Source: Ilumatobacteraceae bacterium (GTDB lineage: Bacteria; Actinomycetota; Acidimicrobiia; Acidimicrobiales; Ilumatobacteraceae). From it: a stretch of 64,000 nucleotides of DNA. The position numbers and the translations under genes were made by a program. The notes under the pieces were generated by a model, which saw only the letters and a program-made list of their open reading frames with translations, ran no database searches and was not told the DNA's origin. Where the stretch lies: assembly GCA_044354345.1 (NCBI GenBank), contig JBILAG010000001.1, forward strand, positions 25,496 to 89,495, in the 5' to 3' direction. This document shows positions 1 through 22,362 of the stretch, one piece after another (position 1 is the stretch's first letter; each line of letters opens with the position of its first letter).

Positions 1-1132
1 GAACCATCTCAACAAATTGTGAGTTGCCAGGATCAAAATTAATAATCTCACGCATAGTTTCAGCGCGAACCTTCTCCCAGTCGGGTTGTGAAACTGAAGT
101 CAGATAGTCCAATATTTCGGTAAAGCGTTTCTCATCAAGTTGATGCGTCCAGAATTCGCCATCGTCAGCAATTACTGCTGGCCAACCAAATTTAAGGGTT
201 TGCACATCAAGCAACTCTGCGTCAACAAGAAATGCTGCAGTTTTTTTGCCTCGAGCAAGCGACTCGTATCCAAGAGAACTGCTTGTGAAAACAACGATTT
301 CAGATTCATTTATAATCTCGTAACTACTCATTGAGGTTCGTCGTGGTTCAAGTTTCCATGAATAGTTTTGGAGCAAGTTTTGGTAGTAACGCTTCTCAGC
401 ATCAAAATTTTCGCTTTTACCGATAATCACAAATTGCCGGTTGTGCTGTTTGCAGTACTCGGCGATCAACGAGATAGTTCGCTCGCGACGTGCCGTGATT
501 GCCTGATAACTGACAGGTTTACCAGGAGCAGAATCAGGGACGATGAGATTTTTGGAAATTTCTGGACGATAAGTCGAAATGTAGGCAATTGTTTGCGATT
601 TCGAATTTACTTGCGGCGAGATATTGTTTTTAAAGCTTCCGATCGGCAAGATCTCGCCCGAAATAAATTTGCGGTAAGTACCACCGATTGCCTTGCCAAA
701 GACGAACATATGGTCGACATGGTTGTCTTTCAATTCAGAATTTTCGAGTAGAGAGCCAAATAGGTCGCCATGCTCGCTACGTATCCCATTTTGGATAAGG
801 ACCGTGCGGATATTTGGAAATTGAGTTTTGAGCCGAAAGAACGGCGGAAAGTTATCGATAAAAGTCAAGACCAATTTTGGCTTAACAATACCGATGTATC
901 TATTTGCATAGTTTTGAGCGCTCAGGTCACGGTCGAATAAACAAAGTAAGGCAACCGAAATATTGACTTCTTTTTCACGGAGATCAAGTACTACAAACTC
1001 ATGTTTTGCAAAATAGGGCTTTATAACTTCTGCCCCCGTGACAAAATAAAGCAGAACATTTGCTCGCCTTGGCGGAAGCAACTTCCAGCGTAATTTTCTC
1101 AAAGACCTCAAAAGCCTAAATATTCGTTTCAT
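1..1132 (-). CDS. Uncharacterised GT-B-like surface-carbohydrate biosynthesis protein, paralogue A1. The 3' end runs off the window and about 7 codons are missing.
   Basis: Absent from the ORF track because it is open at the window edge. Manual translation from the ATG at 1132 (MKRIFRLLRSLRKLRWK ... ETMREIINFDPGNSQFVEMV) is collinear with ORF 3369..4523. ATGA start/stop overlap with the upstream ORF. Motif VVFTSSSLGYESLARGKKT resembles the C-terminal half of GT-B/capsule-type transferases. Confidence 0.6.
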   Translation of the reverse strand, partial: MKRIFRLLRSLRKLRWKLLPPRRANVLLYFVTGAEVIKPYFAKHEFVVLDLREKEVNISVALLCLFDRDLSAQNYANRYIGIVKPKLVLTFIDNFPPFFRLKTQFPNIRTVLIQNGIRSEHGDLFGSLLENSELKDNHVDHMFVFGKAIGGTYRKFISGEILPIGSFKNNISPQVNSKSQTIAYISTYRPEISKNLIVPDSAPGKPVSYQAITARRERTISLIAEYCKQHNRQFVIIGKSENFDAEKRYYQNLLQNYSWKLEPRRTSMSSYEIINESEIVVFTSSSLGYESLARGKKTAAFLVDAELLDVQTLKFGWPAVIADDGEFWTHQLDEKRFTEILDYLTSVSQPDWEKVRAETMREIINFDPGNSQFVEMV

Positions 1133-2169
1133 TTAGACCAAGAAGTTCGAAGTTCTGCCAATGGAGTCGGCCACCGCGAGTCATAGATAGCGATCGCATC
1201 ACGAAACTCCTTAATCGCGCTCTGTGAACCCGTATCGCTGACAGTTTTAACGATTTGCTCGTAGATTTGCGATTCACTTTTGGAAGTTTCTGAATTGAAC
1301 GAAAATGATGAGGTTGACTTACCCGCTGAGATTTGGGTTCGAGGAAGAGCCTGTTGACGCAGCACTCGGCCCGTTAGTTTCGTTCGTGTCCGGCCAAGAA
1401 ATTGCTCGAGTTGGGTTAATGCTGTTTGCGTATCAAGGACCGTGTCTTCAAATGCCAAAACTAAAAAGTTTTCGCCAAGCGAAGCGTGTTTGTTGATGGC
1501 ATCAATCATCAACTTTTGAACCCGAGCTATTGAAATCAAAGCACGATCTGTCACCGATGCTTCTGCGAACTCTCCTGCCCATTCTTTGGCAAACCACGGT
1601 ATTTTTACACCCTTTAGTTTGTACGAGAGGGTAAATTCACGCGAGCGCTCAAAAGAAGCGATGTAGTCACGGACGTTATTGAAGAGATGAATCGGATGTC
1701 GTACGACTTCAATTAGTTTAAGCCTTGCGCCGTAAGTGTCGAAAAGTAAATTAGAAACTGAAATTAGCTCATGCGTTGCGACTAGTAATGCCAGGTTCTT
1801 TGAGTTGATTTCGATGGGAATACCATCGCCGCTCTTTTTGAAAAGCCGTTTCAGGTAGACGAGACTGCCTGGATTATTTCGAAAACCCGAATCATCATCC
1901 CACCGTAGGTTGATTTCGCGACTGATCAGATTGTTGTATTGCGACAAGTCGGCATAAATTTTCAAGAAAGCTGTCGCGGCATCAGTGCTCATTTTCCCTG
2001 CTGCATGTGCGATACAGACGTATTCGTAAACATGTTCAACTTTTTTCTTTTCAACACCCGACATAGAGCCAATAATCGAAGTGACGACTGATTTTCCTCC
2101 TCCCCAGAATCCATTCACAACAATGATGTCGTTGGTAAAAGAGTTTGGATGATCAAATTCAAGAGTCAA
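1129..2169 (-). CDS. Uncharacterised P-loop protein with sulfotransferase-like motif layout, paralogue B1
   Basis: 346-aa ORF. Walker-A-like GFWGGGKS near the N-terminus, EVVRHPIHLFNNV (like the sulfotransferase 3'-PB segment) and C-terminal LAFEDTV...LEQFLG. Collinear paralogue of 4520..5560. Confidence 0.5.
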   Translation of the reverse strand: MTLEFDHPNSFTNDIIVVNGFWGGGKSVVTSIIGSMSGVEKKKVEHVYEYVCIAHAAGKMSTDAATAFLKIYADLSQYNNLISREINLRWDDDSGFRNNPGSLVYLKRLFKKSGDGIPIEINSKNLALLVATHELISVSNLLFDTYGARLKLIEVVRHPIHLFNNVRDYIASFERSREFTLSYKLKGVKIPWFAKEWAGEFAEASVTDRALISIARVQKLMIDAINKHASLGENFLVLAFEDTVLDTQTALTQLEQFLGRTRTKLTGRVLRQQALPRTQISAGKSTSSFSFNSETSKSESQIYEQIVKTVSDTGSQSAIKEFRDAIAIYDSRWPTPLAELRTSWSK

Positions 2170-2190
2170 GGTTTGCTCATTTCGTGAAAT

Positions 2191-3303
2191 TTACTTGACA
2201 GTAAAAGTTGGTTTCCATCGACCACCTTGTTTTTCAAATAATGAGGTGTTGACCCAACGATCAATCACTGATTCAAACTCGGCAAGTGTCATTTTGTAAT
2301 AGTTGAGGTACGAATCTATTTGGTCTTCGGGGTAGAGCCCGTCATAGAGCTTGACGAGGTTTATTGCTTGTTCTCGGGTCATTGCACCGCGACGAATCTC
2401 GATTCCCGCGTCTTGGGTTGCTCGACCAAAACCAAACTTTAGATACATCATGTATGCATGAAGCGAGTAAAGGCCTTGATCGTTTTGTGCAAAATTCGTG
2501 AATGTTCCTGAATTTGTAGTTGGTGCTTCGATTAGTCCGCAGTGTTCTTTTGCGACAAGATAATTTCGGTAAGGGTTCCAGTTTTCGAAATATGACCAAT
2601 GCGTGATTTTCAGTTCATTTCTGCTGATGTTTGGAAACTTAAATAGTGTCAACGCGTCACTCTTAATGTTTGATTCATTTAAAATCAGATCATGTCCACC
2701 CTCTAGATAAACATCATCAATAAAAGTAAAGTCGTGAAACATTTTATTTTTTTGTTCAGATGAGCCGCCATATTCAACCTCACCCTCCTCACCATAAAAA
2801 ATCAACGGAATATTAAATTTTGTTGCCATCATTAACGGCACTGTTTCAATTGCTATAAGCCATCCAAAGTATGGGAAGCCTTTGAGGATAAAGCCTTTTT
2901 TGTTTAACTTTTGCTGTTCATTTTCGTCACAGCTGACCTGCATATGGTCGTAACCATTGGCGATAAAATTTTTTAAGTTTTGGTTGCCGAGCGATAACGA
3001 AAGCGAGGGCGTGACTGTGATCGTCAACGGATGCATTCCGTATTTGTGTCTCAGTTGATACGAAACATACGAACCGTCCTTACCACCGCTTACCGGAACA
3101 ATACAATCAAAAGATCCATCAGAAGACCGGTGCGAATCCAGAATTTGTCTTAACTCATTTTGGCGGATCGACCAATCTAAAGTTTTCTTCTCTTCTGCCC
3201 ATTGACATGCGTTACACCAACCACTCTCATTGAAAGTGATCCTTGGACGTGTTGACATATTCAAACAACTTTTGCACCAGAACACTTCAGACATACTTTT
3301 CAA
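2191..3303 (-). CDS. N-acetyl-sugar amidotransferase (PP-loop ATP pyrophosphatase, WbuX/WbpG/PseA-like), paralogue C1
   Basis: 370 aa. N-terminal CxxC...CxxC (CKSCLN...CNACQW) followed by PP-loop VPVSGGKDGS. Close paralogue of 9111..10223. Confidence 0.8.
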   Translation of the reverse strand: MKSMSEVFWCKSCLNMSTRPRITFNESGWCNACQWAEEKKTLDWSIRQNELRQILDSHRSSDGSFDCIVPVSGGKDGSYVSYQLRHKYGMHPLTITVTPSLSLSLGNQNLKNFIANGYDHMQVSCDENEQQKLNKKGFILKGFPYFGWLIAIETVPLMMATKFNIPLIFYGEEGEVEYGGSSEQKNKMFHDFTFIDDVYLEGGHDLILNESNIKSDALTLFKFPNISRNELKITHWSYFENWNPYRNYLVAKEHCGLIEAPTTNSGTFTNFAQNDQGLYSLHAYMMYLKFGFGRATQDAGIEIRRGAMTREQAINLVKLYDGLYPEDQIDSYLNYYKMTLAEFESVIDRWVNTSLFEKQGGRWKPTFTVK

Positions 3304-3368
3304 CTCTAGAGTGTTAGCAATCGGCGCGCATTGATAAACCCACTTCAGGTATAGGATTTAAAAATCAT

Positions 3369-4523
3369 TTACCAATTAGTGCGAAATAATTCAACCATCT
3401 CAACAAATTGTGAGTTGCCAGGATCAAAATTAATAATCTCGTGCATCGTTTCAGCGCGAACTTTCTCCCATTCGTCATCAGACGAAGCGAGAAGGTAGTT
3501 CAAAATTTCTTCGAATCTATTTTTGTCAAGTCGATTTGTCCAAAACTTTCCGTCATCAGCCAGCGAAACTGGCCAGCCGAACTTGATAGATGGCGAATCA
3601 ATAATTTCTGCGTCAATAAGAAATGCTGCAGTTTTCTTACCACGGGCGAGTGACTCATAACCAAGAGTGCTACTCGTAAATACCACGATCTCTGATTCGT
3701 CTACCACTGCGTAATTGATTATCGCAGTTTGTCTCTGCGCGATCGTCCACGAGAAATCTTTCAATAATTTTCCGTAGTAAGCCTTCTCACCTTCGAAGTC
3801 TTCGTCTTTGCCAATAATCACAAGGCTTAGATTATTGTTTTTGCAAAAATTAGCGAGAAAAATTACTGTCTGCTCACGGCGATCAATTATCTGGCCGTAT
3901 TGAATTGGAAAGCCCGGCAACGAATCTGGAATGACAGTTGTTCTTGCGATACCAGATCGGTATGTCGAGATATATGCGACTGTTTGGTTATTTGATTTAC
4001 TGATCGGCACCAGATTATTTTTGAAACTTCCGATTGGCACAATTTCGCCATCGGTGTATTTGGCATATGTAGCACCGATTGCCGACCCAAATACGAACAT
4101 CTTGTCAACAAAATTTTTGTGCGAACTTGAAGCTACAGAGTTGGTTTCAAAAAGATCATGCGGATCAACACGAACACCGTTTTGAATCAGGACAGTAGTG
4201 ATTTCGGGGAAGCGGTTTTTGACCTGAAAAAATGCCGGAAAGTTATCAATGAAAGTTATAACTAATTTTGGCTTGACGATCTCGATATAAATAAGTGCAT
4301 AGTTTTGAGCACTCAGGTTTCGATCGAACAAACATCGCAACGCCACCCAGAGATTAACTTCGTGCTCTCGTAGGTCCAATACTTGAAATTCATCCGGCGT
4401 GAAATACGGGGCGATTACATCTGCACCCGTAACAAAATAAAGCAGAACTGGTTTGTGGCGTGGCGGAAGTATCCTCCAGCGAAGTCTTGTCAGCGACTTT
4501 AGTAGTCGCCAGAGACGTCTCAT
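3369..4523 (-). CDS. Uncharacterised GT-B-like surface-carbohydrate biosynthesis protein, paralogue A2
   Basis: 384-aa ORF. IVVFTSSTLGYESLARGKKTAAF motif. ATGA overlap with 4520..5560. Paralogue of 1..1132. Confidence 0.6.
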   Translation of the reverse strand: MRRLWRLLKSLTRLRWRILPPRHKPVLLYFVTGADVIAPYFTPDEFQVLDLREHEVNLWVALRCLFDRNLSAQNYALIYIEIVKPKLVITFIDNFPAFFQVKNRFPEITTVLIQNGVRVDPHDLFETNSVASSSHKNFVDKMFVFGSAIGATYAKYTDGEIVPIGSFKNNLVPISKSNNQTVAYISTYRSGIARTTVIPDSLPGFPIQYGQIIDRREQTVIFLANFCKNNNLSLVIIGKDEDFEGEKAYYGKLLKDFSWTIAQRQTAIINYAVVDESEIVVFTSSTLGYESLARGKKTAAFLIDAEIIDSPSIKFGWPVSLADDGKFWTNRLDKNRFEEILNYLLASSDDEWEKVRAETMHEIINFDPGNSQFVEMVELFRTNW

Positions 4524-5560
4524 TTAGACCAAAGATACTCAAGCTCATTGAGAGGGCTTGCCCATCGAGCATTATAGTTCTGAATCGTTTCGCGAAATTC
4601 GTTAATTGCTTTTTCGCTTGCAAGACTCTCAATAGATTTAATAATTTGTAAATAGATTTCTTCTTCCGAAGATGAGCCCTTAGAGACAAACGAAAATGAT
4701 GAAGTTGATTTCCCTGCAGAGATTTGTGCGCGGGGCAGTGACTGTTGTTTAAGCACACGCTTAGTTCGTTTGGTGCTCGCTCGTTCAAGAAACTTTTCAA
4801 TTTTGTCAATTGTGCTGTTTGGGTCTGTAACTGCTTGTTCAAAAGCAAGCACCAGCAGCGGTTTATTAGATTTGGCTAGCGAATCAATTAGTTCAATCAC
4901 AGATTTCTGAATTCGTGAAATTGAGAGAAGAGCACGGTCGGCAATTGATGAATCGACGAACTCGTCTGCCCATGCTGCGGCGAACCATGGAATTTTTTCT
5001 CCCTTATAGTCAAATGAGAGAGTAAATTCACGAGCTCGTTCAAAATTTGCGATGTAGCCACTGACATTATTGAATAAATGAACCGGATGCCGAACCACTT
5101 CAATCAACTTCATTCGAGACCCGTAAGCCTCAAAAAGTAGATTTGAAACCGAGAATAATCCGTGCGACGCAATGAGCAATGCGAGATTTTTTGAATTTAT
5201 TAATTCAATTACAGAGTCGCCGCCCTTATGAAAAAGGCGCCTGAAGTAAGAAAGACTGCCAGGGTTGTTTCGAAGTCCAGTGTCGTCAGACCAGCGAAGG
5301 TTTACCTCACGACCAATGAGGTTGTTGTACTGAGTAGTATCCGCATAAATTTTTAAAAAAGTTTTGGCTGCGTCATCACTCATCTTGCCGACCGAATGCG
5401 TGATACATACGTATTCGTAAATTCCGTCGACTTTCTTTTTCTCAACTCCAGTTAACGAACCAACTATTGATGTGACAACCGATTTGCCACCGCCCCAAAA
5501 TCCGTCAACAATTATCACGTCATTTGTAAATGAGTTGTAATGTTTTAGTTCAAGATTCAT
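4520..5560 (-). CDS. Uncharacterised P-loop protein with sulfotransferase-like motif layout, paralogue B2
   Basis: 346 aa. GFWGGGKS, EVVRHPVHLFNNV and LAFEQAV...IEKFLE motifs. Same length as B1. 4-nt overlaps at both ends. Confidence 0.5.
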   Translation of the reverse strand: MNLELKHYNSFTNDVIIVDGFWGGGKSVVTSIVGSLTGVEKKKVDGIYEYVCITHSVGKMSDDAAKTFLKIYADTTQYNNLIGREVNLRWSDDTGLRNNPGSLSYFRRLFHKGGDSVIELINSKNLALLIASHGLFSVSNLLFEAYGSRMKLIEVVRHPVHLFNNVSGYIANFERAREFTLSFDYKGEKIPWFAAAWADEFVDSSIADRALLSISRIQKSVIELIDSLAKSNKPLLVLAFEQAVTDPNSTIDKIEKFLERASTKRTKRVLKQQSLPRAQISAGKSTSSFSFVSKGSSSEEEIYLQIIKSIESLASEKAINEFRETIQNYNARWASPLNELEYLWSK

Positions 5561-6384
5561 TGACTAATCTTTTCATCTGTTGACCGTTTTCGCGTGGCAA
5601 TATTGTTCGAGACACAAAACGCCCTTATCTCATTAAAGTTAAACTTTTTATAGTGAAGAGAATCAGCAATAGCAACACCTGTTGGTTTGCTGACTTGCAT
5701 CAACTCTTTTAGGTGGTCCAATTTGCCGAACCCACCGCTTGCGACCACAGGTATATCAACTAATTTCGTTACGGCACTTACTAATTGACAATCGAAACCG
5801 TTTTTTGTGCCCTCTTGATCAACAGAAGTCAAAAATATCTCTCCGGCACCTAACTGTGCTCCTTGTTCTGCCCACTGCACAACATCAAGGCCAGTTCGCT
5901 CACGCCCGTTATCTGTGTAAGCCTCCCACTTGCCTGGTGCAGTTTGCTTTGCTTCGATTGACAAAACAATTGTCGAAGAGCCCCAGACTTCAGAAATTTT
6001 TGTGATCAAACTGGGATCTTTAACCGCAGCCGTATTGATCGCAACTTTGTCGGCGCCTGCACGAAGCAATGCTCGAGCATCTTCAACTGATCTGATTCCG
6101 CCACCAACAGTCATTGGCACAAAAACATGTTCGGTTGCACGGGTCACGACGTCCAACAAGTTATTTCGTCCATACAGACTGGCAACAGTATCCATATAGA
6201 TAATTTCGTCTGCGCCATCGTTGTAATACTTTTCGGCATGCACTTGTGGATCGCCGACAACCCGCAATCCCTCAAGGTGAATTCCCTTAATTAAATTTGC
6301 GCCCTTGATATCAAGTCGGGCGATTAATCTAAGTATTTGTCGAGGAGTAACTGAAATTACTTTACTTGGTAACGAAGAGACCAC
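5557..6384 (-). CDS. HisF-like imidazole-glycerol-phosphate-synthase cyclase-subunit homologue (glycan-cluster type)
   Basis: 275 aa. ARLDIKG..., TVGGGIRSVEDA, ADKVAINTAAV and VVASGGFG are typical HisF (beta/alpha)8 phosphate-binding motifs. Confidence 0.8.
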   Translation of the reverse strand: MVSSLPSKVISVTPRQILRLIARLDIKGANLIKGIHLEGLRVVGDPQVHAEKYYNDGADEIIYMDTVASLYGRNNLLDVVTRATEHVFVPMTVGGGIRSVEDARALLRAGADKVAINTAAVKDPSLITKISEVWGSSTIVLSIEAKQTAPGKWEAYTDNGRERTGLDVVQWAEQGAQLGAGEIFLTSVDQEGTKNGFDCQLVSAVTKLVDIPVVASGGFGKLDHLKELMQVSKPTGVAIADSLHYKKFNFNEIRAFCVSNNIATRKRSTDEKISQ

Positions 6385-7664
6385 TGCCCTTTATTGTACG
6401 ACCATAAATGTGGTGAGCGAAACGAGTCAGCGAGGTTGTTGAAATAATTGAGATCCATGATCGGTTGCTCAAACATTTTTGAAGCTTGAGGGAATTCTTT
6501 CTCGGGAATACTTAAGTAGGTAAGTATTTCATCTGAAAAACGTGTCGGATATTCGCCATCAAATCTTTGTACGAGCGCAACTCCTTCTTCGCGATTTATG
6601 TCTCCAGAGCGAATCTCCTGGGCAGCATCATAAGTTGCACGACCGATTCCGTATTTAATAAAAGTCGTGTAGTAGTGAAAGTCATCAATGCGATCATCAA
6701 TTGAGTTGTACTTGCTGTAAGTTCCGGGTGTGCGCTCGGGCGACGCTTCGAAACCGCCGTGCTCGACCGAGTAGTAATAGCAACTTTGCGGATGCCACTT
6801 GACGTAATAACCGAGGTAGTGAACTTCGATTCCAAGTTTTTCTAGACCTGCTGGGTTCGCAGGTAGATAAGGATCAAGATCAACATCTTCTAATCCAAAA
6901 TCAGTTGTGAGATCTTTGATTGAAGTGCCACCGAGATGAATCGACGACTTCTCTGGGGCAGAAAAATATTTCCATGATCTCTTGGCAGAGTCGGCATCAC
7001 CGATTGGGTTTCCATATTCTGCTTCGTTCTCTCCATAAAAAACCAAAGGTATTTGATGCAACACAGCCATTTTCGGCGCCAGTGATTTTTGTCCAAGAAT
7101 AAACGCTTGAAATGGATGAAAGAGATTTTCTACGGCAAGTCTTGTTAAGAGTCGGTGTACGCGACCATTCGGCGTGCAAAGGTAATTATCGAAACCTGCA
7201 TGAATCCATCGCTGAAAGTTTCGCCAACCCCATTCGGTATAAACATGTGGCGCCCATGTCACGGTCAGTGGATGCATTCCGTATTCATATTTCAGCATGT
7301 GGGCTGCGACAAAACTATCTTTACCACCTGAACCTGGAACCAGACAATCGTATGATCCGTCACTGCTGCGGTGCTTGTCACAGAGTTCGCGAAGTTCAGC
7401 ATCTCTTGCATCCCAGTCAATCAGAGATTTTTTCTCAGCGACACGACAAGCATCGCAAATATTTTCATCGTCAATATGAATTGCCTGTTTTACTGAGCCA
7501 GAAGTATGTTGAAATTCAATCGCTGAGATTGGTTTTTGATTTGATGTCACGCATCGTTGACAAAAACTAACTGTGTCGGGTAGACCGTATTTTGCAATAA
7601 GCGATGTTCTAGATGGCTCAAAATTTTTAAGATCTATAGTTCTTGATTTTGGAAACAAACTCAC
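6357..7664 (-). CDS. N-acetyl-sugar amidotransferase, long divergent paralogue (C2)
   Basis: 435 aa. CQRC...CDAC zinc-ribbon-like pairs and canonical PP-loop PGSGGKDS. Conserved C-terminal GIGRATYDAAQEIRSG block shared with C1/C3. Confidence 0.75.
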   Translation of the reverse strand: MSLFPKSRTIDLKNFEPSRTSLIAKYGLPDTVSFCQRCVTSNQKPISAIEFQHTSGSVKQAIHIDDENICDACRVAEKKSLIDWDARDAELRELCDKHRSSDGSYDCLVPGSGGKDSFVAAHMLKYEYGMHPLTVTWAPHVYTEWGWRNFQRWIHAGFDNYLCTPNGRVHRLLTRLAVENLFHPFQAFILGQKSLAPKMAVLHQIPLVFYGENEAEYGNPIGDADSAKRSWKYFSAPEKSSIHLGGTSIKDLTTDFGLEDVDLDPYLPANPAGLEKLGIEVHYLGYYVKWHPQSCYYYSVEHGGFEASPERTPGTYSKYNSIDDRIDDFHYYTTFIKYGIGRATYDAAQEIRSGDINREEGVALVQRFDGEYPTRFSDEILTYLSIPEKEFPQASKMFEQPIMDLNYFNNLADSFRSPHLWSYNKGQWSLRYQVK

Positions 7665-7704
7665 GTCGTCATTGTAGTTTCGTTTTAATTGTTTGATTAA
7701 GTTC

Positions 7705-8481
7705 TTAATTCAAATCGAAGATTGGCAGGTCGATGCCGAGGTTAACAAGTTGTGAGCGTGCTGAAGCAAGTCCATCACCCATGAAGTTGAGCAGGTTCGC
7801 CGTTGCCACAGCATCAACGCGAGCATCTTTCAACCCTTCGGCTAGGTGCGAGTAATTACCAACGCCGCCACTAATAATCACCGGGATCTCAAATAGTTCG
7901 GGAAGACAATCAAGTAATTCAATCTGAAAACCGTTTCCTGTGCCGTCGCGATCAATTGAGTTGATACAAATTTCTCCGATTGCCAGATCAGAACATTGTT
8001 CTAAAAACTTTGTAAGAGTTAGATCAGTCATATTTGACCCGTTGTTGATCGCAATGTAGAACTTGCCTTTGATTTGTTTACAGTCAACTGACGCGATAAT
8101 GCATTGACGACCGAATTCTTGAGCCAGTTCTGAAATAAGTTGCTTGTTGCCATGCAGTGCGCTGTTCACGACTATTTTATCTGCGCCCGAGCGAAGTAAT
8201 TTTGTAGCGTCTACAACTGAGTTGATTCCGCCCCCTGCAGCAATTGGCGCAAAGCAATCATTAGTCAGAGTTTTCAGAACCTCAGAGAATTCATCACGAT
8301 TTCGCTCGTTACGGCTCACATCCAGAACAATTAGTTCATCAATCGAGAAACCAACATTTGAAAAGCCATAATTTTTTTCAAGCCAATTAATATCGCCCAC
8401 TTTTTGAAGTCTGAAATTTCGAGAGAGCATGAACGATCCACTGTCATAAAGGAGTGTGAAGATGAGTCTTTTCTTGGCCAT
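7705..8481 (-). CDS. HisF-like cyclase-subunit homologue (WbuZ-like)
   Basis: 258 aa. RLIFTLLYD..., AAGGGINSV, ADKIVVNSA and IISGGVG motifs. Confidence 0.75.
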   Translation of the reverse strand: MAKKRLIFTLLYDSGSFMLSRNFRLQKVGDINWLEKNYGFSNVGFSIDELIVLDVSRNERNRDEFSEVLKTLTNDCFAPIAAGGGINSVVDATKLLRSGADKIVVNSALHGNKQLISELAQEFGRQCIIASVDCKQIKGKFYIAINNGSNMTDLTLTKFLEQCSDLAIGEICINSIDRDGTGNGFQIELLDCLPELFEIPVIISGGVGNYSHLAEGLKDARVDAVATANLLNFMGDGLASARSQLVNLGIDLPIFDLN

Positions 8482-8484
8482 GAT

Positions 8485-9111
8485 TTATCTTTCGAGAAAA
8501 TTCTTCAAAAGATTAAGCCCCATTGACTGACTCTTCTCTGGGTGAAACTGCGTACCCGATACCTGTCCTTGCTCGAAAGCTGCAACAAACTCGGTGCCAT
8601 GATGGCACTTGGCTACGCCCTCAATCGTTGGAGTTAGCTCCATGAAATATGAATGGACAAAATAAAAGCACGACTCGCTAGGAATGCCACTAAAAAGTTT
8701 TATTTTTGAGTCATGTTTAACTTCACTGAACCCAACATGTGGAATTTTTAATCTCGTATCTGCAGAGTTGGTAAATTTTCGCACTGTATTTGGTATCAGT
8801 CCGAGTCCTTGAGTATCGCCGTCTTCTGAGCTCGCAGAACCAAGCAGTTGCATACCCAGGCAAATTCCGAGAAGTTTGGTTTCAGGTTGAGATAGTGATT
8901 GAAGAATCGCCTTGTCAATTGAGTTCTGTTTAATTACTTGCATTGCTCGCCGAAATGATCCGACTCCAGGAAGTATTAAAAATTTGGCCGACGAAATTTC
9001 TTTCGTGTTTGATGTGATTAAGGCTTCAGAACCCAGAAAGCGAATTGCACTGGCTACAGACCAAAGATTGCCCATGCCGTAATCAACGACTACAACCTGT
9101 TTTTTACTCAC
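8485..9111 (-). CDS. HisH-like class-I glutamine amidotransferase (WbuY-like)
   Basis: 208 aa. VVVVDYGMGNLWS, catalytic-Cys context GICLGMQLL and QFHPEKS. GTG start overlaps the upstream TAG by 1 nt. Confidence 0.85.
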   Translation of the reverse strand: MSKKQVVVVDYGMGNLWSVASAIRFLGSEALITSNTKEISSAKFLILPGVGSFRRAMQVIKQNSIDKAILQSLSQPETKLLGICLGMQLLGSASSEDGDTQGLGLIPNTVRKFTNSADTRLKIPHVGFSEVKHDSKIKLFSGIPSESCFYFVHSYFMELTPTIEGVAKCHHGTEFVAAFEQGQVSGTQFHPEKSQSMGLNLLKNFLER

Positions 9112-10223
9112 TATTCAATTGTAAAGGTTGGCTTCCACCGGCCATCTTGTTTTTCAAATAGAGAAGTGTTTGTCCAACGATCGATCACTGCTTCAAACTC
9201 GCTGAGAGTCATTTTGTAATAGTTGAGATATGCGTCTATGTTGTCGTGCGGATACAGGCCGTCGTAAAGTTTGACGAGGTTTACGGCCTGATCTCGAGTC
9301 ATTGCGCCACGACGTATTTCGATTCCGGCATCTTGCGTTGCTCGACCAAATCCAAACTTCAAGTACATCATGTAGGCATGTAGTGAGTAGAGCGCTTGAT
9401 CGTTTTGTGCAAAGTTTGTGAATGTTCCTGAATTTGTATCAGTTGCTTCGATCAACCCGCAGTGTTCTTTTGCAACGAGATAATTTCTGTAAGGGTCCCA
9501 GTTTTCAAAATATGACCAGTGAGTAATTTTAAGTTCACCATCGCCAATCTCGTCTTTTGATGGAAAGCGGAAAAACGGTAATGCTTCATTTTCGAGCTTT
9601 GCTTCTTTAAACACCAGATCTTGGCCACCCTCGAAATAAATATCACGAATGTATCCGATGTCGTAAAACGGTTTGTCTTTTAGAGCAGTCGAACCGCCAT
9701 ATTCAGTTTCACCTTCTTCGGCATAAAAAATCAGCGAGATGTTCAACTGGGCCGCAATCTTTAGCGGGCCAGTCTTGATTGCCATTAGCCAACCGAAATA
9801 TGGAAACCCTTTGTGGATGAAACCAAACTTGTTAAGCGCATCCATTACGTCACCAGCAGGGCTGATTTGAATATGGTTATATCCACTTGCAATAAAATTT
9901 TTTAGATTTTGATTACCGAGGTCAAGTGCAAGTGCTGGTGTAATCGTGACAGTTAGTGGATGCATGCCGTAGACATGTTTCAGTTGATGAGCAACATATG
10001 ACCCGTCTTTGCCACCGCTAACTGGAACGACGCAATCAAACGATCCATCAGAAGATCGGTGTGAATCCAAAATTTGTTTTAGTTCATTTTGTCGGCCCGA
10101 CCAGTCTAAATTTTTCTTCTCCTCAGCCCATTGGCAAGCGTTGCACCAACCACGCTTGTCAAATGTGATTCGCGGTCGTGTTGACATATTCAAACAGCTT
10201 GTACACCAGAAAAGTTCGCTCAT
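9111..10223 (-). CDS. N-acetyl-sugar amidotransferase, paralogue C3
   Basis: 370 aa. CTSCLN...CNACQW plus PP-loop VPVSGGKDGS. Same length as C1. Confidence 0.8.
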   Translation of the reverse strand: MSELFWCTSCLNMSTRPRITFDKRGWCNACQWAEEKKNLDWSGRQNELKQILDSHRSSDGSFDCVVPVSGGKDGSYVAHQLKHVYGMHPLTVTITPALALDLGNQNLKNFIASGYNHIQISPAGDVMDALNKFGFIHKGFPYFGWLMAIKTGPLKIAAQLNISLIFYAEEGETEYGGSTALKDKPFYDIGYIRDIYFEGGQDLVFKEAKLENEALPFFRFPSKDEIGDGELKITHWSYFENWDPYRNYLVAKEHCGLIEATDTNSGTFTNFAQNDQALYSLHAYMMYLKFGFGRATQDAGIEIRRGAMTRDQAVNLVKLYDGLYPHDNIDAYLNYYKMTLSEFEAVIDRWTNTSLFEKQDGRWKPTFTIE

Positions 10224-10254: not shown

Positions 10255-11106
10255 TCACCATGTAGATAGTCCACCGTCAACTATGAGATTCTGACCCGTT
10301 ACATAACTTGACGCATCTGATGCTAAATAAATTAATGCACCGGTAAGTTCTGATGCTTGACCCATTCGCCCAAGCGGCACTCTGTTCGAGTATTTGTCGT
10401 CAAAAGTTTTGTTTTGCCCAGAAGAGATTCCGCCCGGAGTCAAAGAGTTAACTCGAATACCGCTATCAGCCCAATAAGTTGACAAATAACTTGTCAGACC
10501 AACTACAGCCGCCTTTGATGCCGAGTAAACAGCAGGCGTATTAATAGGTCTTCCGTTGTATTGCGAGCCTTCATATATACGTTGGTCTGGAGCGACTACG
10601 CCATAAATAGAAGATGTCTGAATGATCGAGCCGCCACCTTGGAGTTTCATCTGTTTTCCGACTGCTTGGGCAACTAAAAACAACCCATCAATATTTACGG
10701 ACATGACTTCGCGCCAAGTTTGCAGTGAGTATTCTTCGAATGGTTTGAAGAATTCATGAAGGTTTGAACCCTTCGACGCAGCATTATTAACGAGTACATC
10801 AATCCGACCGAAATCACTGACGACTGCTGCAACCATCTGTGCAACAGATTCCGGTGAAGTGATATCGCAGCCAAAGCCAGAAACTTTTCGACCAGACTTT
10901 TTAGAGACAGCATCAGCCACCGATTTCGCAGCAGGCTGATCAATATCGACAACCGCAACTTGTGCTCCGCTGTCGGCAAAAGCCTGAGAGAAAACTTGAC
11001 CAAGGAGACCAGCCCCACCAGTAACCAAAACAACTTTGTTACTGAGGCCAAAAAGTTCTGAAGTTTGGGTATTCGTCACTTGGCTGAACCTTTCGACATC
11101 ATCCAT
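10255..11106 (-). CDS. Short-chain dehydrogenase/reductase (PtmA-like position)
   Basis: 283 aa. Rossmann VLVTGGAGLLGQ and catalytic YSASK. Lies directly after the cytidylyltransferase, as in the C. jejuni ptm block. Confidence 0.75.
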   Translation of the reverse strand: MDDVERFSQVTNTQTSELFGLSNKVVLVTGGAGLLGQVFSQAFADSGAQVAVVDIDQPAAKSVADAVSKKSGRKVSGFGCDITSPESVAQMVAAVVSDFGRIDVLVNNAASKGSNLHEFFKPFEEYSLQTWREVMSVNIDGLFLVAQAVGKQMKLQGGGSIIQTSSIYGVVAPDQRIYEGSQYNGRPINTPAVYSASKAAVVGLTSYLSTYWADSGIRVNSLTPGGISSGQNKTFDDKYSNRVPLGRMGQASELTGALIYLASDASSYVTGQNLIVDGGLSTW

Positions 11107-11774
11107 TCAACCATTTCAAAATCTGCCTCAGAATCTATATCTAACGAGCGTTCTCGGGGCATCTCAAACAGACGGGTGCTAGACACGAACAAACTTGGAT
11201 TGTTCAAAAGCGCGTCACGCCGCCAAACATAAATTGATGCATTCATGTCAAAACATTTTGGAGAATCTTGACGACGGGTTACAGCATCTTTTAGTGGCTT
11301 CGAAAGTTGAACGATTCCATTTTCGTCTTGCTCAACAAGATTGAAATAAGGGGATCGATGAGCTGGTGTGCCGGTAATGACATTGTCAGCGTTTGTCGCT
11401 GTTAAAAGTTCTAAAGAACCGATGATGTCTGCGGCAATACGAAGAGGGGCAGTTGCATCTAGGTCAATGATGATGTCAAATTGACCAAATTTTTTTTCGG
11501 TGGTCTCAACACAATGTCTGATAGCCGGAAGTTTTGGTGCGGTATCTGATGCCATTTGTGTGGGGCGATCAACAACGAAGGTTGCACCGTGAGCCATCGC
11601 AGTTGTTCGAATTTCTGAGCTGTCACTGCTAACGGCAATCTGCGAAAACAATTTAGTTTCAACTGCCTGTTGCAGGGAATAGGCAATAAGTGGCAGCCCG
11701 TTGATTAATCGCAAGTTTTTATTTGCAACACCCTTAGAACCGGCGCGCGCACAAATTGTGCAAAGAATCTTCAT
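11076..11774 (-). CDS. legF: Acylneuraminate-type cytidylyltransferase (CMP-legionaminic acid synthetase-like)
   Basis: 232 aa. N-terminal CARAGSKGVANKNL motif of the CMP-NeuAc synthetase family. Operon context. Confidence 0.8.
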   Translation of the reverse strand: MKILCTICARAGSKGVANKNLRLINGLPLIAYSLQQAVETKLFSQIAVSSDSSEIRTTAMAHGATFVVDRPTQMASDTAPKLPAIRHCVETTEKKFGQFDIIIDLDATAPLRIAADIIGSLELLTATNADNVITGTPAHRSPYFNLVEQDENGIVQLSKPLKDAVTRRQDSPKCFDMNASIYVWRRDALLNNPSLFVSSTRLFEMPRERSLDIDSEADFEMVEWMMSKGSAK

Positions 11775-12709
11775 CGCTTAATCCATTTTCGTTTTGACGC
11801 TGCGACTTCGATTGCTTCAATAGTTTTTACAACAGTCAACGCTTCGGCGATTGAGCAGATAGTTTTCGGGTCATGAGCGATCATCGCTCTATGCTCTGCT
11901 AGATATGTGTTATCTAAGTCAGCATTAAATACCTGAGTTGCGTCGTTGAATTGCGCTAATCCAGAGAGCAAATCAATCCGTATTGTGCCTTTGTCACCAT
12001 TAATTGTGATCACTCTTTGCTTGATTCGATCAAGGTAATTCAATTGAATTGATATTGCTTGACAAGTCTTTGTTTGCATCAAAATTGAAAAGGTGTCGTC
12101 TGTTTCAATTTCAAGGTTGCTGAACTTTCCACCAGTTGAAGTTAGATGACTCCAGTCACCAAACAAATATTGGACTAGGTCTAATTCATGGCTGAGATCG
12201 CGTAATACTCCACCACCGCTAGCGATCGTTGCCGAACTTGAGTTTTGGTATCTAACATTTTTGCGCCAAGTTGGCAAATATTGTCCAATATAAAAACTTG
12301 CTGATGAAACGTACCCAAGTTGAGGCAGCGTGTCGCGTAACCATGTAATGGCGGGGTGAAAGCGAAGGTTGTATCCAACACCAGCAAACCCAAATTTATT
12401 TTTAGCAATTTTTTCATTTGACGCAAAAAGTGGTTTTTCAATTAAAACCTTGCCCGTGAATTTTGCTTTGTAAAGTTCTTTGAGATCACTTTTATGTTGT
12501 GAAGTTCTGCTGGCGACAACAACGTATTCGAATTGATCGTGCTTTAGTGCATCTGAAATAGATTTGTAATTGATTACGTCTGGTTGATTATTTACGTAAC
12601 TCGAAACTACGACTACTTCATGATGTAATTCACGAAGTAGTCGGGTATGTCTTGAACCGATAGACCCGGCGCCAATTACGGCAATCTTCACTGAACTTCC
12701 CTGGGCCAT
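11771..12709 (-). CDS. Gfo/Idh/MocA-family oxidoreductase (PtmF-like position)
   Basis: 312 aa. N-terminal IAVIGAGSIGSRH Rossmann motif. 4-nt overlap with the downstream gene. Confidence 0.7.
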   Translation of the reverse strand: MAQGSSVKIAVIGAGSIGSRHTRLLRELHHEVVVVSSYVNNQPDVINYKSISDALKHDQFEYVVVASRTSQHKSDLKELYKAKFTGKVLIEKPLFASNEKIAKNKFGFAGVGYNLRFHPAITWLRDTLPQLGYVSSASFYIGQYLPTWRKNVRYQNSSSATIASGGGVLRDLSHELDLVQYLFGDWSHLTSTGGKFSNLEIETDDTFSILMQTKTCQAISIQLNYLDRIKQRVITINGDKGTIRIDLLSGLAQFNDATQVFNADLDNTYLAEHRAMIAHDPKTICSIAEALTVVKTIEAIEVAASKRKWIKR

Positions 12710-13737
12710 TCGCGCTGTGCTCGCTCAAGTTCGTCAAGTCGACCAATGTCAACCCAATATTCGTGAAGCGGAAACGCAGCAGTTCGATGGCCATCTGAAG
12801 CAAGTTTTGTAAAGTGTGTCGGCATGTCGTAGTAAGTATCTGCCGGAATATTCTCGAGCCCTTTTGCACTAATCACATAGATTCCAGCATTAACCAGATG
12901 TCGTTGAGTTGGTTTTTCTGTCACACCTACGATCTGAGTTCCGTCAACTTCAACAACACCAAAGGGAATTTGGTAATTGTCTTCGCGCACGACCATGGTT
13001 GCGATTGCGTTTTCACGTTCATGAAAGTCAATTAGTGAGTCGACAGAAATTCGTGTCAGCAGGTCACCGTTCATCACGATTACCGGACAGTCAATACTGC
13101 TTGGCAGAAGTGAAAGCCCACCAGCAGTGCCAAGTCGAGTTGTCTCGTGCAAGTATTTGATCGAAGCGCCTAGGCGCGAACCATCACCGAAGTAATCAGA
13201 GATTATCTCTGCTTTGTAATTTAGGGATACAAAAAAATTTACATATCCTTGGTCGATAAACGATTGAATTATCGTTTCAAGAATCGGCTTGCCGCCAACA
13301 TTTAGCATTGGCTTTGGCGTGTCTTGGGTGAGTGGATACAAACGAGTGCCTAATCCGCCGGCCATAATTACAACAGCGTTTGATTTTTGTTTTGCCCCAA
13401 TGATGTCGTCAACAGTTAAGACATCAACAACTTTGCCTGCTTCATCAACGAGTGGCATTTGGTGAATTCTTCGTTCACGCATCACTTTTAGAATCGCTGC
13501 TCGCGGCGTAGATGCTGCACTGGTTGCCGGATTCTTTCGCATTGCTTCAGCAGCAGTGATTTCAAGGTCTTTACCAGCCAAAATAGCTTTGCGAATATCG
13601 CCATCAGTGATCGTGCCGAGAAGTTTGTTCTGGGCATCAACAACTAGTGCGATCTGTAAATTTCCGGCCGTAATCGCTTCAATTGTTTGACGAAGTGTCA
13701 TCGAACTCGATACAAGCGCATCTCGCCAACTAGACAT
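12688..13737 (-). CDS. ptmE: CBS-domain sugar-phosphate nucleotidyltransferase (PtmE-like GlcN-1-P guanylyltransferase)
   Basis: 349 aa. Tandem CBS-like N-terminal region, then VVIMAGGLGTRLYPLT nucleotidyltransferase motif. Confidence 0.7.
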   Translation of the reverse strand: MSSWRDALVSSSMTLRQTIEAITAGNLQIALVVDAQNKLLGTITDGDIRKAILAGKDLEITAAEAMRKNPATSAASTPRAAILKVMRERRIHQMPLVDEAGKVVDVLTVDDIIGAKQKSNAVVIMAGGLGTRLYPLTQDTPKPMLNVGGKPILETIIQSFIDQGYVNFFVSLNYKAEIISDYFGDGSRLGASIKYLHETTRLGTAGGLSLLPSSIDCPVIVMNGDLLTRISVDSLIDFHERENAIATMVVREDNYQIPFGVVEVDGTQIVGVTEKPTQRHLVNAGIYVISAKGLENIPADTYYDMPTHFTKLASDGHRTAAFPLHEYWVDIGRLDELERAQREWPREVQ

Positions 13738-13742
13738 TGCAA

Positions 13743-14375
13743 CTATTCTAATTGCGTTGCGGGGTTCCCTACTACGGTCACTGAATCGTTAATACTGTGA
13801 CGCACAACTGCGCCAGCACCGACAACACAATTATCACCAATCTCTACGCCTTGAATGATTACGGCCCCCGCACCAATAAATGATCCAACTCCAATTTTAA
13901 CCGAGCCTGAAATTATTGCTCCAGGAGAGATAACCGCATGGTCAGAAATTATTACGTCATGATCAACTGACGCCCGAGTATTGATCACACAATTTTCGCC
14001 CGCTCGTACTCTGTTTTGCAAAACTGCACCGGCCATGATTTGTGTGTTCTCAGCGATTTTGCACTCTGCGCCAATTGTCGCCGATGGATGTTGGACCCCA
14101 ATAAATTTAAAACCAAGGTTAAGCCAGTGATTATAAATTTCTTGTCGTGCTTGAGTGTTCTTGGTAGATCCAAGACCATTAATCAATTCAGTTTTTTTCG
14201 GGTCGAGAGTCTTAATAAAATTATCGTCACCAACAACTGGCACACCAAAAATTTGACTGCCAATTTCAAGTTGCGCGTCAATTATTCCGTTGACTGTTTT
14301 GCCTGAGGCGAGGAGTGCATCAAGCACAACTCGACCGTGGCCGCCACATGCGATCAAATATCTCTGTGTTGACAT
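13743..14375 (-). CDS. legH: NeuD/PglD-family hexapeptide sugar N-acetyltransferase (LegH-like)
   Basis: 210 aa. N-terminal Rossmann-like LIACGGHGRVV and C-terminal left-handed beta-helix repeats (IGDNCVVGAGAVV). Confidence 0.75.
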   Translation of the reverse strand: MSTQRYLIACGGHGRVVLDALLASGKTVNGIIDAQLEIGSQIFGVPVVGDDNFIKTLDPKKTELINGLGSTKNTQARQEIYNHWLNLGFKFIGVQHPSATIGAECKIAENTQIMAGAVLQNRVRAGENCVINTRASVDHDVIISDHAVISPGAIISGSVKIGVGSFIGAGAVIIQGVEIGDNCVVGAGAVVRHSINDSVTVVGNPATQLE

Positions 14376-14378
14376 TGA

Positions 14379-17796: not shown

Positions 17797-17800
17797 TTAT

Positions 17801-20264: not shown

Positions 20265-20285
20265 TCAACGTTTAACCTTATATAT

Positions 20286-22352: not shown

Positions 22353-22362
22353 TCTTTCCCGT

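Follow-up and report, generated by a model that had tools for sequence, protein, structure and literature searches.

Diverged C-B-A cassettes that probably still recombine in a nonulosonic-acid gene array of freshwater Ilumatobacteraceae

Related glycan systems and the layout of the array

Mosaic surface-polysaccharide loci, such as the capsule and flagellar-glycosylation loci of Campylobacter jejuni and the cps locus of Streptococcus pneumoniae, are shaped by duplication, deletion, fusion and recombination between paralogues. C. jejuni PseA/PtmG, with adjacent hisH/hisF-like genes, belongs to a system related to the one considered here. The closest described systems are the NASAT/WbuX-WbuY-WbuZ systems for acetamidino sugars, represented by E. 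coli O145 WbuX, P. aeruginosa O5 WbpG and L. pneumophila NASAT (PDB 8WEX; PMC10607449), for which a tetracysteine motif and a PP-loop have been defined (PMC10607449). A second relative, LA_1612, lies within the legionaminic/sialic acid cluster of L. interrogans (PMC4758666). On a larger scale, the glycotypes of aquatic microbes have been described as 'flexible genomic islands', for which replacement of the whole island is the usual description (PMC10872708, PMC3542563, PMC4535781).

In this context, we analyzed a 64-kb stretch of DNA from an Ilumatobacteraceae bacterium (the window), of which positions 1-10223 form the distal part of a same-strand array of about 19 kb. The locus belongs to a freshwater genome of the Acidimicrobiia (Ilumatobacteraceae, acIV) and not to Leptospira. 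All window features named below lie on the minus strand. The upstream genes (10255..18793) belong to a legionaminic-acid-type nonulosonic acid pathway, with NCBIfam matches above cutoff for LegB, LegC, NeuC, NeuB and NeuD, and further include sugar-1-P nucleotidyltransferase, oxidoreductase, CMP-transferase and SDR genes. They are followed by C3 (9111..10223), the HisH-like, WbuY-type glutaminase H (8485..9111; TIGR01855, 214.5 bits), the HisF-like, WbuZ-type subunit F1 (7705..8481), C2 (6357..7664) and a second subunit of the F1 type, F2, paired with C2 (5557..6384), both subunits being assigned by profile matches. B2 (4520..5560) and A2 (3369..4523) come next, and C1 (2191..3303) opens a second cassette with B1 (1129..2169, TTG start) and A1 (2..1132). 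The minus-strand ORFs thereby reproduce the order and boundaries that an earlier sequence-only reading had assigned from A1 to C3. A1 is cut at the window edge, with 23 nt more (7 codons and the stop) past position 1, and is seen full-length in contig L001 (6719-7873). More copies had been anticipated beyond this edge; what lies there in the window lineage is gene X, a D-2-hydroxyacid dehydrogenase and the next gene left of A1, and no further cassette was found. Within the 64-kb window there is no additional A, B or C copy.

C1, C2 and C3 all exceed the TIGR03573 WbuX cutoff (C1 with 326.9 bits against 203) and carry the tetracysteine motif and PP-loop. As in the NASAT/WbuX systems, they stand beside HisH- and HisF-like genes and downstream of a nonulosonic-acid pathway. 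C3, the closest paralogue of C1, matches the L. pneumophila NASAT crystal structure (PDB 8WEX) with E 2.4e-52; the divergent C2 has 33% amino acid identity to C1 and C3 and a canonical SGGKDS PP-loop. By sequence, C is thus assigned as an N-acetyl-sugar amidotransferase (NASAT/WbuX). Unlike the described systems, the array combines three paralogues with one HisH-like and two HisF-like genes, the PP-loop of C1 and C3 reads SGGKDG rather than SGGxDS, and the predicted activity would take place in a Gram-positive freshwater actinobacterium, which has no LPS.

Similarly, A1 and A2 reach 337.8 and 320.7 bits for TIGR04441 (PF27908), against a cutoff of 150, and like Leptospira LA_1612 they sit within a nonulosonic-acid gene cluster. 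They differ from it in being found in Actinomycetota, where the family occurs twice in tandem as diverged copies; each copy is translationally coupled with a gene for a sulfotransferase-fold protein, which LA_1612 does not have as its neighbour in Leptospira. A is an LA_1612-family protein with a GT-B fold: the AF2 model of A2 (pLDDT 85) has GT-B matches in Foldseek and points to a generic GT-B fold alone. For B2 (AF2 model, pLDDT 84), the top Foldseek matches are all PAPS sulfotransferases, and its Pfam Sulfotransfer_1 score of 21.4 bits is slightly below the cutoff of 22; B1, with 63% amino acid identity to B2, has the motifs GGGKS and RHP. Modelling accordingly gives B a predicted PAPS-sulfotransferase fold, at TM-scores of just 0.4-0.55 for both the A and the B models. 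These assignments agree with the labels amidotransferase, sulfotransferase-like and GT-B-like proposed for C, B and A from the letters alone. The proximal genes would then make a CMP-legionaminic-acid-type sugar, C1-C3 with their HisH-like and two HisF-like partners may convert N-acetyl to acetamidino groups, and the coupled B and A pairs presumably act in modifying this sugar and in its transfer to a glycan of the cell surface; we infer these biochemical roles of A and B, and likewise the glycan product.

An A2-type tail at the end of A1

The paralogues are collinear and equal in length within pairs (A 384 aa, B 346 aa, C 370 aa), as had been proposed, and they are strongly diverged. A1 and A2 share 65% of nucleotides, 63% of amino acids and 43% of third positions, B1 and B2 63% at both levels, and C1 and C3 75% and 76%, respectively. 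Both cassettes have the sequence TGGTCTAAATGA at the B-to-A junction, where the ATGA overlap recognized earlier joins the B1 stop to the A1 start and the B2 stop to the A2 start. The A2-C1 spacer (3304..3368) measures 65 nt, compared with about 12 nt in other two-cassette strains, and includes the end of the A gene a second time, as a relic (3311-3333; CAATGCGCGCCGATTGCTAACAC); this extended junction is also present in the sister lineage L051. We read the locus as a nonulosonic-acid array holding C-B-A cassettes twice, the old copies of which still recombine and vary the number and type of cassettes, and give this reading a probability of about 0.8.

The exact repeat noted before is real: window positions 2-49 equal 3393-3440, and the first 80 nucleotides of the alignment include 74 matches. 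A repeat finder extends the match to 2-83 against 3393-3474, at 94%, the latter interval being the A2 partner of the tract described below. For sequences that are 65% identical, the analytic probability of an exact run of 48 nt is about 5e-7, and in 20000 codon-column shuffles no run of 48 nt or more arose (longest 41, mean 15.8). We then compared the window with fixed differences between five A1 and seven A2 orthologues. The five A1 orthologues have a 3' end different from that of the window A1, which has the A2-type one: 15 consecutive informative sites are in the A2 state (gene nt 1050-1129, window 4..83; permutation 0/20000, P<1/20000). This A2-type tract is at least 80 nt long, with A1-type sequence on its 5' side; its left breakpoint falls between gene nt 1049 and 1050 (window 83/84), and its right end cannot be placed because A1-type and A2-X-type sequence are the same from GGTTCAATCAT on.

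Could such local identity reflect constraint on an otherwise static old duplication, through a protein motif with fixed codons or a nucleotide element in the A 3' end? The tract does encode a conserved C-terminal motif, W..(V/I).SET...II..D..NSQF, and a 14-16-nt core, AACTCACAATTTGT, is common to all close allele types. We nevertheless regard this explanation as highly improbable, contradicted as it is by the orthologue alignment, the tract permutation and the shuffling of tails. The five A1 orthologues encode a different peptide here, WERICSETMNNIITYDENN, with many nucleotide differences, and body and tail types are discordant in 13 of 119 A proteins, in both directions, all 13 falling in the clade where several types co-occur. 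For the C genes, third-position identity does not rise locally among distant orthologues.

The position of the repeat, which begins 1 nt after the window start, together with related contigs that are often short and end within the locus, raises the question of whether a metagenome assembler cross-joined paralogues or strains at a shared stretch. Such an artefact is barely credible. The independent contig L001 crosses the window edge into X with 0 mismatches over 7.2 kb, and A1-type and A2-type sequence share about 8 nt at the left breakpoint (GACTGGGA), too short for a k-mer join. In addition, discordant alleles are found in many samples, and L051, which comes from another sample, has the same architecture as the window with its own variants.

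L051 also bears on concerted evolution of the A tails. In a four-taxon test of its A genes with those of the window, about 274 informative sites before nt 1050 group by gene. From nt 1050 to 1154 no site does so: nt 1086 and 1124 sort by genome and a further two are crossed. Beyond this stretch nt 1155, part of the stop codon, is the only site that groups by gene again. Homogenisation after the split of the two lineages is thus backed by just two by-genome sites. In L051, A1 and A2 match exactly over 60 nt at this position, in a run of their own that has variants particular to the genome; this indicates ongoing intragenomic conversion.

An origin of the A2-type tail outside the genome, by import together with the spacer and X from a single-cassette A2-X strain, has to be weighed against such conversion, and we consider it unlikely. 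Over the first ~1 kb downstream of A1, identity to L005, L016 and L019 is 0.88-0.93, whereas past the initial 330 nt identity to the remaining A1-X strains is just about 0.80; the tails of L016 A2 and window A1 are the same except at 2-3 positions. Since the X region is nearer to A2-X and type-II strains, the tail could have come with foreign DNA. That inter-strain exchange does happen in the locus follows from a sharp recombination breakpoint in C2, near 7209, between the window and L001. However, the variants at nt 1086 and 1124 are common to both tails within a genome and absent from orthologues, and a single import predicts neither the 48-nt identity of the tails in the window nor the 60-nt identity in L051. 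Either the resident A2 or a foreign A2-X allele could have donated the A1 tract. Inter-strain import and intragenomic conversion are compatible routes.

Hybrid genes and cassette number among relatives

The close relatives are all Acidimicrobiia/Ilumatobacteraceae freshwater MAGs; the comparison set consists of metagenome contigs or MAGs throughout, and the phase of A1 and A2 within one clone is taken from assemblies. Cassette gain and loss, suspected from the repeat pattern, is visible here: in relatives the number of B-A pairs is one or two and that of WbuX genes ranges from one to three, and hybrid genes are located at the predicted recombination joints. In L050 and L052 the A genes are clean hybrids of an A2 5' part and an A1 3' part, with a B2-type B before and X after them, and differ in breakpoint (nt 840-891 and nt 891-907, respectively). 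They are deletion products. Their crossovers map to a conserved block of A1 (gene nt 840-907, window 226..293) that encodes VVFTSS.LGYESLARGKKTAAF and has its counterpart in A2 at 3617..3684. In L006 and L020, a C gene whose body is of C1 type and whose 3' end is of C3 type is followed by H, and the two ends of L006 share an overlap of 358 nt at 97.8%; this hybrid C gene marks a 6.8-kb tandem duplication.

These observations fit a model in which the old C-B-A copies would recombine by ordinary homologous recombination at conserved stretches. A short non-reciprocal exchange would have replaced the last ~80-100 nt of A1 by A2-type sequence, and homogenisation of the tails would continue separately in the window and sister lineages. 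An A2xA1 crossover in the block at gene nt 840-907 would remove one whole cassette in register, leaving behind a hybrid but functional A gene adjoining X, and a C1xC3 crossover in the similar 3' thirds would duplicate the 6.8-kb unit. The expected result is a population of strains unlike in cassette number and type. Cassette variation of this kind may diversify the surface glycan, and selection, for example by phages or grazers, may keep it.

The process as such is already known, and the window locus provides a well-documented new instance, a clear though not unprecedented case of bacteria varying their surface sugars. Like the mosaic polysaccharide loci, it is a same-strand glycan operon with paralogous transferase and modification genes, hybrid genes at joints and a gene number that varies by strain. 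It is unlike them in that a defined cassette of three genes is repeated, that crossovers are in register at conserved blocks, with recurrent short conversion at the 3' end of one gene, that no homopolymeric phase-variation tracts were noted here, and that the lineage providing the evidence is planktonic and uncultured. As in the flexible genomic islands, strain-variable cell-surface glycan genes are enclosed by conserved flanks, here SDR and the Leg pathway at one end and X at the opposite end, and assemblies break up at the locus; in contrast to the whole-island replacement usually described there, variation here arises inside the island, through recombination of resident paralogues.

Origin of the cassettes and the C1/C3 mosaic

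The sequence-only reading called the locus a segmentally duplicated cassette. Collinearity of the paralogues is borne out, and duplication in situ may be the wrong origin. B2-A2 and B1-A1 may instead be old alleles of the slot adjoining X that were joined by unequal recombination between strains, an origin to which we assign somewhat less than even odds. In closely related strains, single-cassette loci with flanks of 92-97% amino acid identity carry alleles that are A2-type (L007, L016, L019), A1-related (L004, L005; 73-78%), of L017 type (69%) or of L009 type (61-63%). With such varied B-A alleles in one slot, the cassettes may be stacked alleles. A1 and A2, at 61% in the body of the gene, are also as divergent from each other as from lineages whose flanks are just ~80% identical, and a C1-led cassette comes after an A2 or an A' gene (L014). 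Yet C1 has no counterpart in single-cassette loci, its nearest relative being the resident C3, and a donor with C directly before B as its sole cassette was not found among the relatives' loci. The kinship of C1 and C3 fits a larger internal duplication, comparable to the 6.8-kb tandem of L006/L020, followed by internal deletion. As for the A2-X loci with a single cassette (L007, L016, L019), they may be ancestral rather than deletion products.

Whichever way the cassettes arose, divergence along them is uneven, and the recombination mosaic postulated from the sequence holds for the A1 tail and for C1/C3; it does not extend to B1/B2, where the tract test applied to A found no conversion tract. 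In C1 and C3 the C-terminal third is more similar than the middle, as had been seen by eye, both in nucleotide identity (0.83-0.87 vs 0.62-0.69) and at third positions (0.65-0.75 vs ~0.40). Synonymous divergence is low in codons ~221-300 (2404..2643 in C1, 9324..9563 in C3), an old mosaic segment that is the substrate of the C1xC3 crossover in L006/L020. This synonymous-site mosaic is absent from distant orthologues and common to all close strains; it is therefore real but old, and not particular to the window genome.

An A2-type 3' end in A1

The left end of the window carries ten minus-strand ORFs, exactly where the sequence-only reading had placed them. In transcription order they are C3 (9111-10223), H (8485-9111), F1 (7705-8481), C2 (6357-7664), F2 (5557-6384), B2 (4520-5560), A2 (3369-4523), C1 (2191-3303), B1 (1129-2169) and A1 (2-1132). 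The C genes are NASAT/WbuX paralogues, the B genes have a predicted sulfotransferase fold, the A genes belong to the LA_1612 family with a predicted GT-B fold, and we refer to the C-B-A unit as a cassette. As had been proposed, the paralogues are collinear and of equal length (A1/A2 384 aa, B1/B2 346 aa, C1/C3 370 aa), and the B-to-A junction reads TGGTCTAAATGA in both copies. Identity amounts to 63% at both nucleotide and amino acid level for B1 and B2, and to 75% (nt) and 76% (aa) for C1 and C3. Outside the tract of A2-type sequence that ends A1, identity between A1 and A2 is 65% (nt) and 63% (aa), and only 43% at third positions. Judged by their sequences, all three pairs are old paralogues outside that tract. 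C2 shares about 33% of its amino acids with C1 and C3, and F2 likewise only about 33% with F1.

Within this background lies the exact repeat that the sequence-only reading had reported, and its hand count is confirmed: window positions 2-49 recur without a mismatch at 3393-3440, and over the first 80 aligned positions 74 agree. A repeat finder extends the similarity to 2-83 versus 3393-3474 at 94%. For a pair of genes with 65% identity, the analytic probability of a 48-nt exact run is near 5e-7, and none of 20,000 codon-column shuffles reached that length. Comparison with orthologues assigns a direction to the similarity. The gene ends with GGGAACGCATTTGCTCAGAAACAATGAACAACATAATTACTTACGACGAAAATAAC in five independent A1 orthologues and with GGGAGAAGGTGCGCTCTGAGACGATGCGTGAAATAATTAATTATGATCCTGGTAAC in A2 orthologues; in the window, the A2-type end directly follows A1-type sequence in A1. 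Across 182 sites with a fixed difference between the A1 (n = 5) and A2 (n = 7) orthologues, the body of the window's A1 is in the A1 state throughout; 15 sites in a row then show the A2 state, at gene nt 1050-1129, corresponding to window 4-83 (permutation P 0/20000). The tract thus stands above the background and is, on this comparison, foreign to A1, in line with the proposed conversion or recombination between paralogues. Its 5' flank is clearly A1-type; its right boundary is unplaceable because the A1-type and A2-X-type alternatives are identical there (X being the D-2-hydroxyacid dehydrogenase gene beyond A1). The same fixed-difference and best-segment test found no tract in B1/B2 (P 0.95).

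Whether the tract came from the resident A2 or from another strain can be addressed with L051, a contig of a sister lineage that is 93% identical in nucleotides and has the same two-cassette layout. In a four-taxon comparison of both A genes from both genomes, the stretch before nt 1050 has about 274 informative sites that group by gene. From nt 1050 to 1154 there are none, alongside two grouping by genome (nt 1086 and 1124) and two with the crossed (X) pattern; the sole later by-gene site, nt 1155, lies in the stop codon. L051 has its own 60-nt exact run between A1 and A2 at the same place as the repeat in the window. The pattern bears the signature of continuing within-genome homogenisation of A tails, with by-genome support from two sites only. 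A foreign A2-X allele may also have contributed to the tail of A1, since the X region downstream of A1 in the window's lineage is nearer to A2-X and type-II strains than to other A1-X strains; the two by-genome sites and the separate run in L051 would not be expected from a single foreign import, though both routes may have operated.

An assembly break or chimera at the window edge was considered as a source of the tract and rejected. The metagenome contig L001 equals window 1-7208, bridges the edge exactly and reaches 1 kb past it, and L051 repeats the layout with variants of its own. This leftward extension places the stop codon of A1 23 nt outside the window. It also disposes of the suggestion that more copies follow on the left: beyond A1 come X and further sugar-nucleotide genes, and no additional A, B or C copy was found anywhere in the 64-kb window. 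Past position 7208, window and L001 differ at 36 of 536 nt (7209-7744, covering the 5' half of C2, the F1-C2 spacer and the 3' end of F1), which marks a sharp inter-strain recombination breakpoint inside C2.

The sequence-only reading had seen a second mosaic in C1 and C3. The mosaic is real at third positions, where identity reaches 0.65-0.75 in codons ~221-300 and ~0.6-0.7 in codons 1-60 against ~0.40 mid-gene, but it contains no strain-specific tract (best-segment permutation P 0.13). Third-position identity between C3 and distant C3 orthologues is flat at 0.41-0.48 throughout; given this lack of a local rise, the mosaic reflects ancestry, not codon constraint. As it is also present in the C1 and C3 orthologues of other strains, the exchange is old.

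Some smaller features of the two cassettes may be recorded here. The start codon of B1 (2167-2169) is TTG in the window and ATG in the orthologues of three other two-cassette strains (L002, L008 and L012). The A2-C1 junction (3304-3392) exceeds that of other two-cassette strains by about 55 nt; the C-terminus of A2 is the variant ELFRTNW, and a relic of the usual gene end follows it at 3311-3333. The sister lineage L051 has the extended junction as well (around 1000-1075).

Predicted functions of the cassette genes

All three C proteins score well above the cutoff of 203.2 bits for the NCBIfam model TIGR03573 (WbuX), with 326.9 (C1), 381.6 (C2) and 321.5 bits (C3), and C3 matches the crystal structure of a Legionella NASAT (8WEX) with an E-value of 2.4e-52. 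The family is characterized by a tetracysteine motif, CXXCXn[GN]XCXXC, and a PP-loop, SGGXDS (PMC10607449). The former is found in all three proteins, starting at residue 10 in C1, 35 in C2 and 7 in C3. The PP-loop reads SGGKDS in C2, matching the family signature, and SGGKDG in C1 (residues 72-77, window ~3073-3090) and C3 (residues 69-74, ~10002-10019), the final serine being replaced by glycine. By sequence, the three are members of the N-acetyl sugar amidotransferase family; amidotransfer onto a sugar N-acetyl group is predicted, and C1 and C3 may share that activity. Downstream of C3 lie H and F1, and downstream of C2 lies F2; C1 comes without a HisH- or HisF-like partner of its own. H is HisH-like, above the NCBIfam cutoff; F1 (230 bits) and F2 (260 bits) are HisF/WbuZ-like, both under the WbuZ equivalog cutoff of 299.7.

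The A proteins belong to TIGR04441, the 'LA_1612 family putative O-antigen biosynthesis protein', with 337.8 bits for A1 and 320.7 bits for A2 (cutoff 150), and precomputed annotations place PF27908 on their homologues. They had no match even at E 10 in a Pfam-A copy that lacks PF27908, and none in a PDB profile search. A structural model (pLDDT 85) has a generic GT-B fold, with matches including GT4-type transferases, 2-epimerases, TagF and a polysialyltransferase. A literature search on LA_1612, TIGR04441 and PF27908 returned only a Leptospira gene table.

For B, sequence profiles stay under the cutoff: B2 reaches 21.4 bits against Pfam Sulfotransfer_1 (PF00685), just below the required 22, B1 has no match to that family, and the best hits in a PDB profile search are sulfotransferases at an E-value of only 0.24. 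In a model of B (pLDDT 84) the top 50 Foldseek matches in the PDB are all sulfotransferases (best E 4.5e-7), with TM-scores of only 0.32-0.56. The predicted fold of B is that of the PAPS sulfotransferases, with no other fold among those matches, though the scores are modest. Invariant motifs in B are GxWGGGKS (residues 20-27) and RHP (157-159), which we take to be candidate counterparts only of the P-loop-like 5'-phosphosulfate and the 3'-phosphate motifs of PAPS sulfotransferases.

The genomic setting points to nonulosonic acids. Directly upstream on the same strand lies a complete legionaminic-acid-type pathway that comprises LegB, LegC, NeuC, NeuB and NeuD plus a nucleotidyltransferase, an oxidoreductase, a CMP-transferase and an SDR. 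In L. interrogans, LA_1612 itself is part of the legionaminic/sialic acid cluster (PMC4758666), which ties the A family to nonulosonic-acid genes in two phyla. Finding this 'Leptospira' family in a second phylum, again beside legionaminic-acid genes, sharpens the hypothesis that it acts on nonulosonic acids; the work also flags B as an uncharacterised sulfotransferase-fold partner. A Leptospira origin of the locus, suggested by the family name, was rejected: all close relatives in a scan of reference genomes are freshwater Acidimicrobiia MAGs labelled Ilumatobacteraceae, 'Acidimicrobiaceae' or acIV, and the flanking genes are 92-97% identical to theirs in amino acids.

Cassette number and hybrid genes among relatives

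Cassette gain and loss had been predicted, and both the copy number and the junctions of related loci agree with it. Read in transcription order, the commonest layout among the fetched loci is SDR-C3-H-F1-C2-F2-B-A-X, seen in distant relatives and in the close A2-type loci L007, L016 and L019. Two cassettes as in the window are present in L001, L002, L008, L012 and L051. Loci with other allele types (B', A') read SDR-C2-F2-B'-A'-X in L004, L005 (a 1-Mb long-read contig), L009, L022 and L046, and SDR-C2-F2-B'-A'-C1... in L014; L049 (1-3473) has C3-H-F1-B-A without a C2-F2 pair. The gene upstream of C1 in L012 at first scored as A1-type ('A1 78% partial', tblastn), a short-fragment artefact; because its DNA has an A2-type tail, L012 is an ordinary two-cassette locus.

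Hybrid genes occur at the predicted joints and with the predicted flanks. L050 and L052 contain clean single-crossover hybrids, A2 in the 5' part and A1 in the 3' part, each after a B2-type B and before X. The breakpoints are not the same (nt 840-891 in one, nt 891-907 in the other), and both fall within the most conserved block of A; by sequence the two are the expected products of two independent one-cassette deletions between A2 and A1. In L006 and L020 a C gene composed of a C1 body and a C3-type 3' end lies between A2 and H. The two termini of L006 share an overlap of 358 nt at 97.8%, and L006:1-7192 and L020:1-6747 are circular permutations of a ~6.8-kb unit, C-H-F1'-C2-F2-B2-A2, whose F1' is only 61% identical to F1 of the window. 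This arrangement fits a tandem duplication of the unit through a C1-C3 crossover. The reciprocal three-cassette product was not seen among the fetched loci. In the protein database, body and tail types are discordant in 13 of 119 A-family proteins: A2 bodies with A1-type or third-type tails, and A1 and A' bodies with A2-type tails. All 13 come from the clade in which several types co-occur, and none from distant clades.

How the two cassettes came together is a separate question. Old alleles stacked in tandem would fit the depth of divergence, as the bodies of A1 and A2 share 61% identity, a separation as deep as that from lineages with flanking genes at only ~80% identity. In the same slot, close single-cassette strains carry A2-type, A1-related (73%), L017-type (69%) and L009-type (61-63%) alleles. 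On the other hand, the nearest relative of C1 is the resident C3, and the tandem in L006 and L020 demonstrates that in-situ duplication of a larger unit does occur; either such a duplication or stacking may be the origin.

The window starts 1 nt before the 48-nt exact repeat, and many related contigs, only 3-9 kb in length, terminate within the locus, which suggests that assemblies break here from repeats and strain heterogeneity. In practice, the structure of the locus accounts for these breaks and supplies junction sequences that are diagnostic of cassette variants and allow them to be counted in metagenomes.

Proposed glycan diversification within a genomic island

Pathogens offer well-documented cases of mosaic glycan loci shaped by duplications, deletions and hybrid genes. 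The acIV/Ilumatobacteraceae, most of them uncultured, are abundant in lakes, and phages and grazers probably target their surface glycans. Aquatic microbes are known to carry glycan 'flexible islands' (PMC10872708, PMC3542563, PMC4535781). Literature searches on gene conversion in capsule or O-antigen loci and on nonulosonic acids in acIV found no description of the cassette. All component families are already known; new are a defined cassette of NASAT, sulfotransferase-fold and LA_1612-family genes in a freshwater lineage of uncultured actinobacteria, a hotspot at which the 3' end of A is repeatedly converted, and the deletion and duplication products, which are directly observed. With the qualifications given above, the observation of the sequence-only reading stands and its interpretation is supported. 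The locus offers a sequence-level picture of how strain-level glycan diversity may arise within an island: ordinary homologous recombination between resident paralogues yields conversion tracts, in-frame hybrid genes, and the gain or loss of a whole three-gene unit.

A more far-reaching reading, to which we give a probability of about one in five, takes the C-B-A units as true exchangeable cassettes. The conserved blocks of A, at nt 840-907 and across its final ~100 nt, would then, like the 3' third of C, be maintained as in-register joints, letting a genome-streamlined planktonic actinobacterium alter the number and kind of modified legionaminic-acid residues on its surface glycan. In the same tentative scheme, the coupled B-A pair would form a previously uncharacterised system of a nonulosonic-acid transferase and a sulfotransferase, and a Gram-positive cell wall would carry legionaminic-acid glycans that are both amidinated and sulfated.

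Further along the window, at 25785-33339, a tRNA-Met (CAT; 25785-25861) comes directly before a second nonulosonic-acid-like cluster with genes for an HpcH aldolase, a GFO oxidoreductase, an inositol-monophosphatase-like protein, an Fe-ADH, a DegT aminotransferase, a GT2, a second NeuB and a second CTP_transf_3. Between the two glycan clusters (18993-25329) lie housekeeping-type genes on the opposite strand, coding for a SepM/Lon-like protease, a 688-aa DivIVA-domain protein and a 988-aa UPF0182 protein. Related strains carry a conserved 632-635-aa ORF without a Pfam match in the same glycan island as the cassettes, just past X and a cytidylyltransferase (L005:12892-14799, L018:4041-5939, L050:5388-7286).
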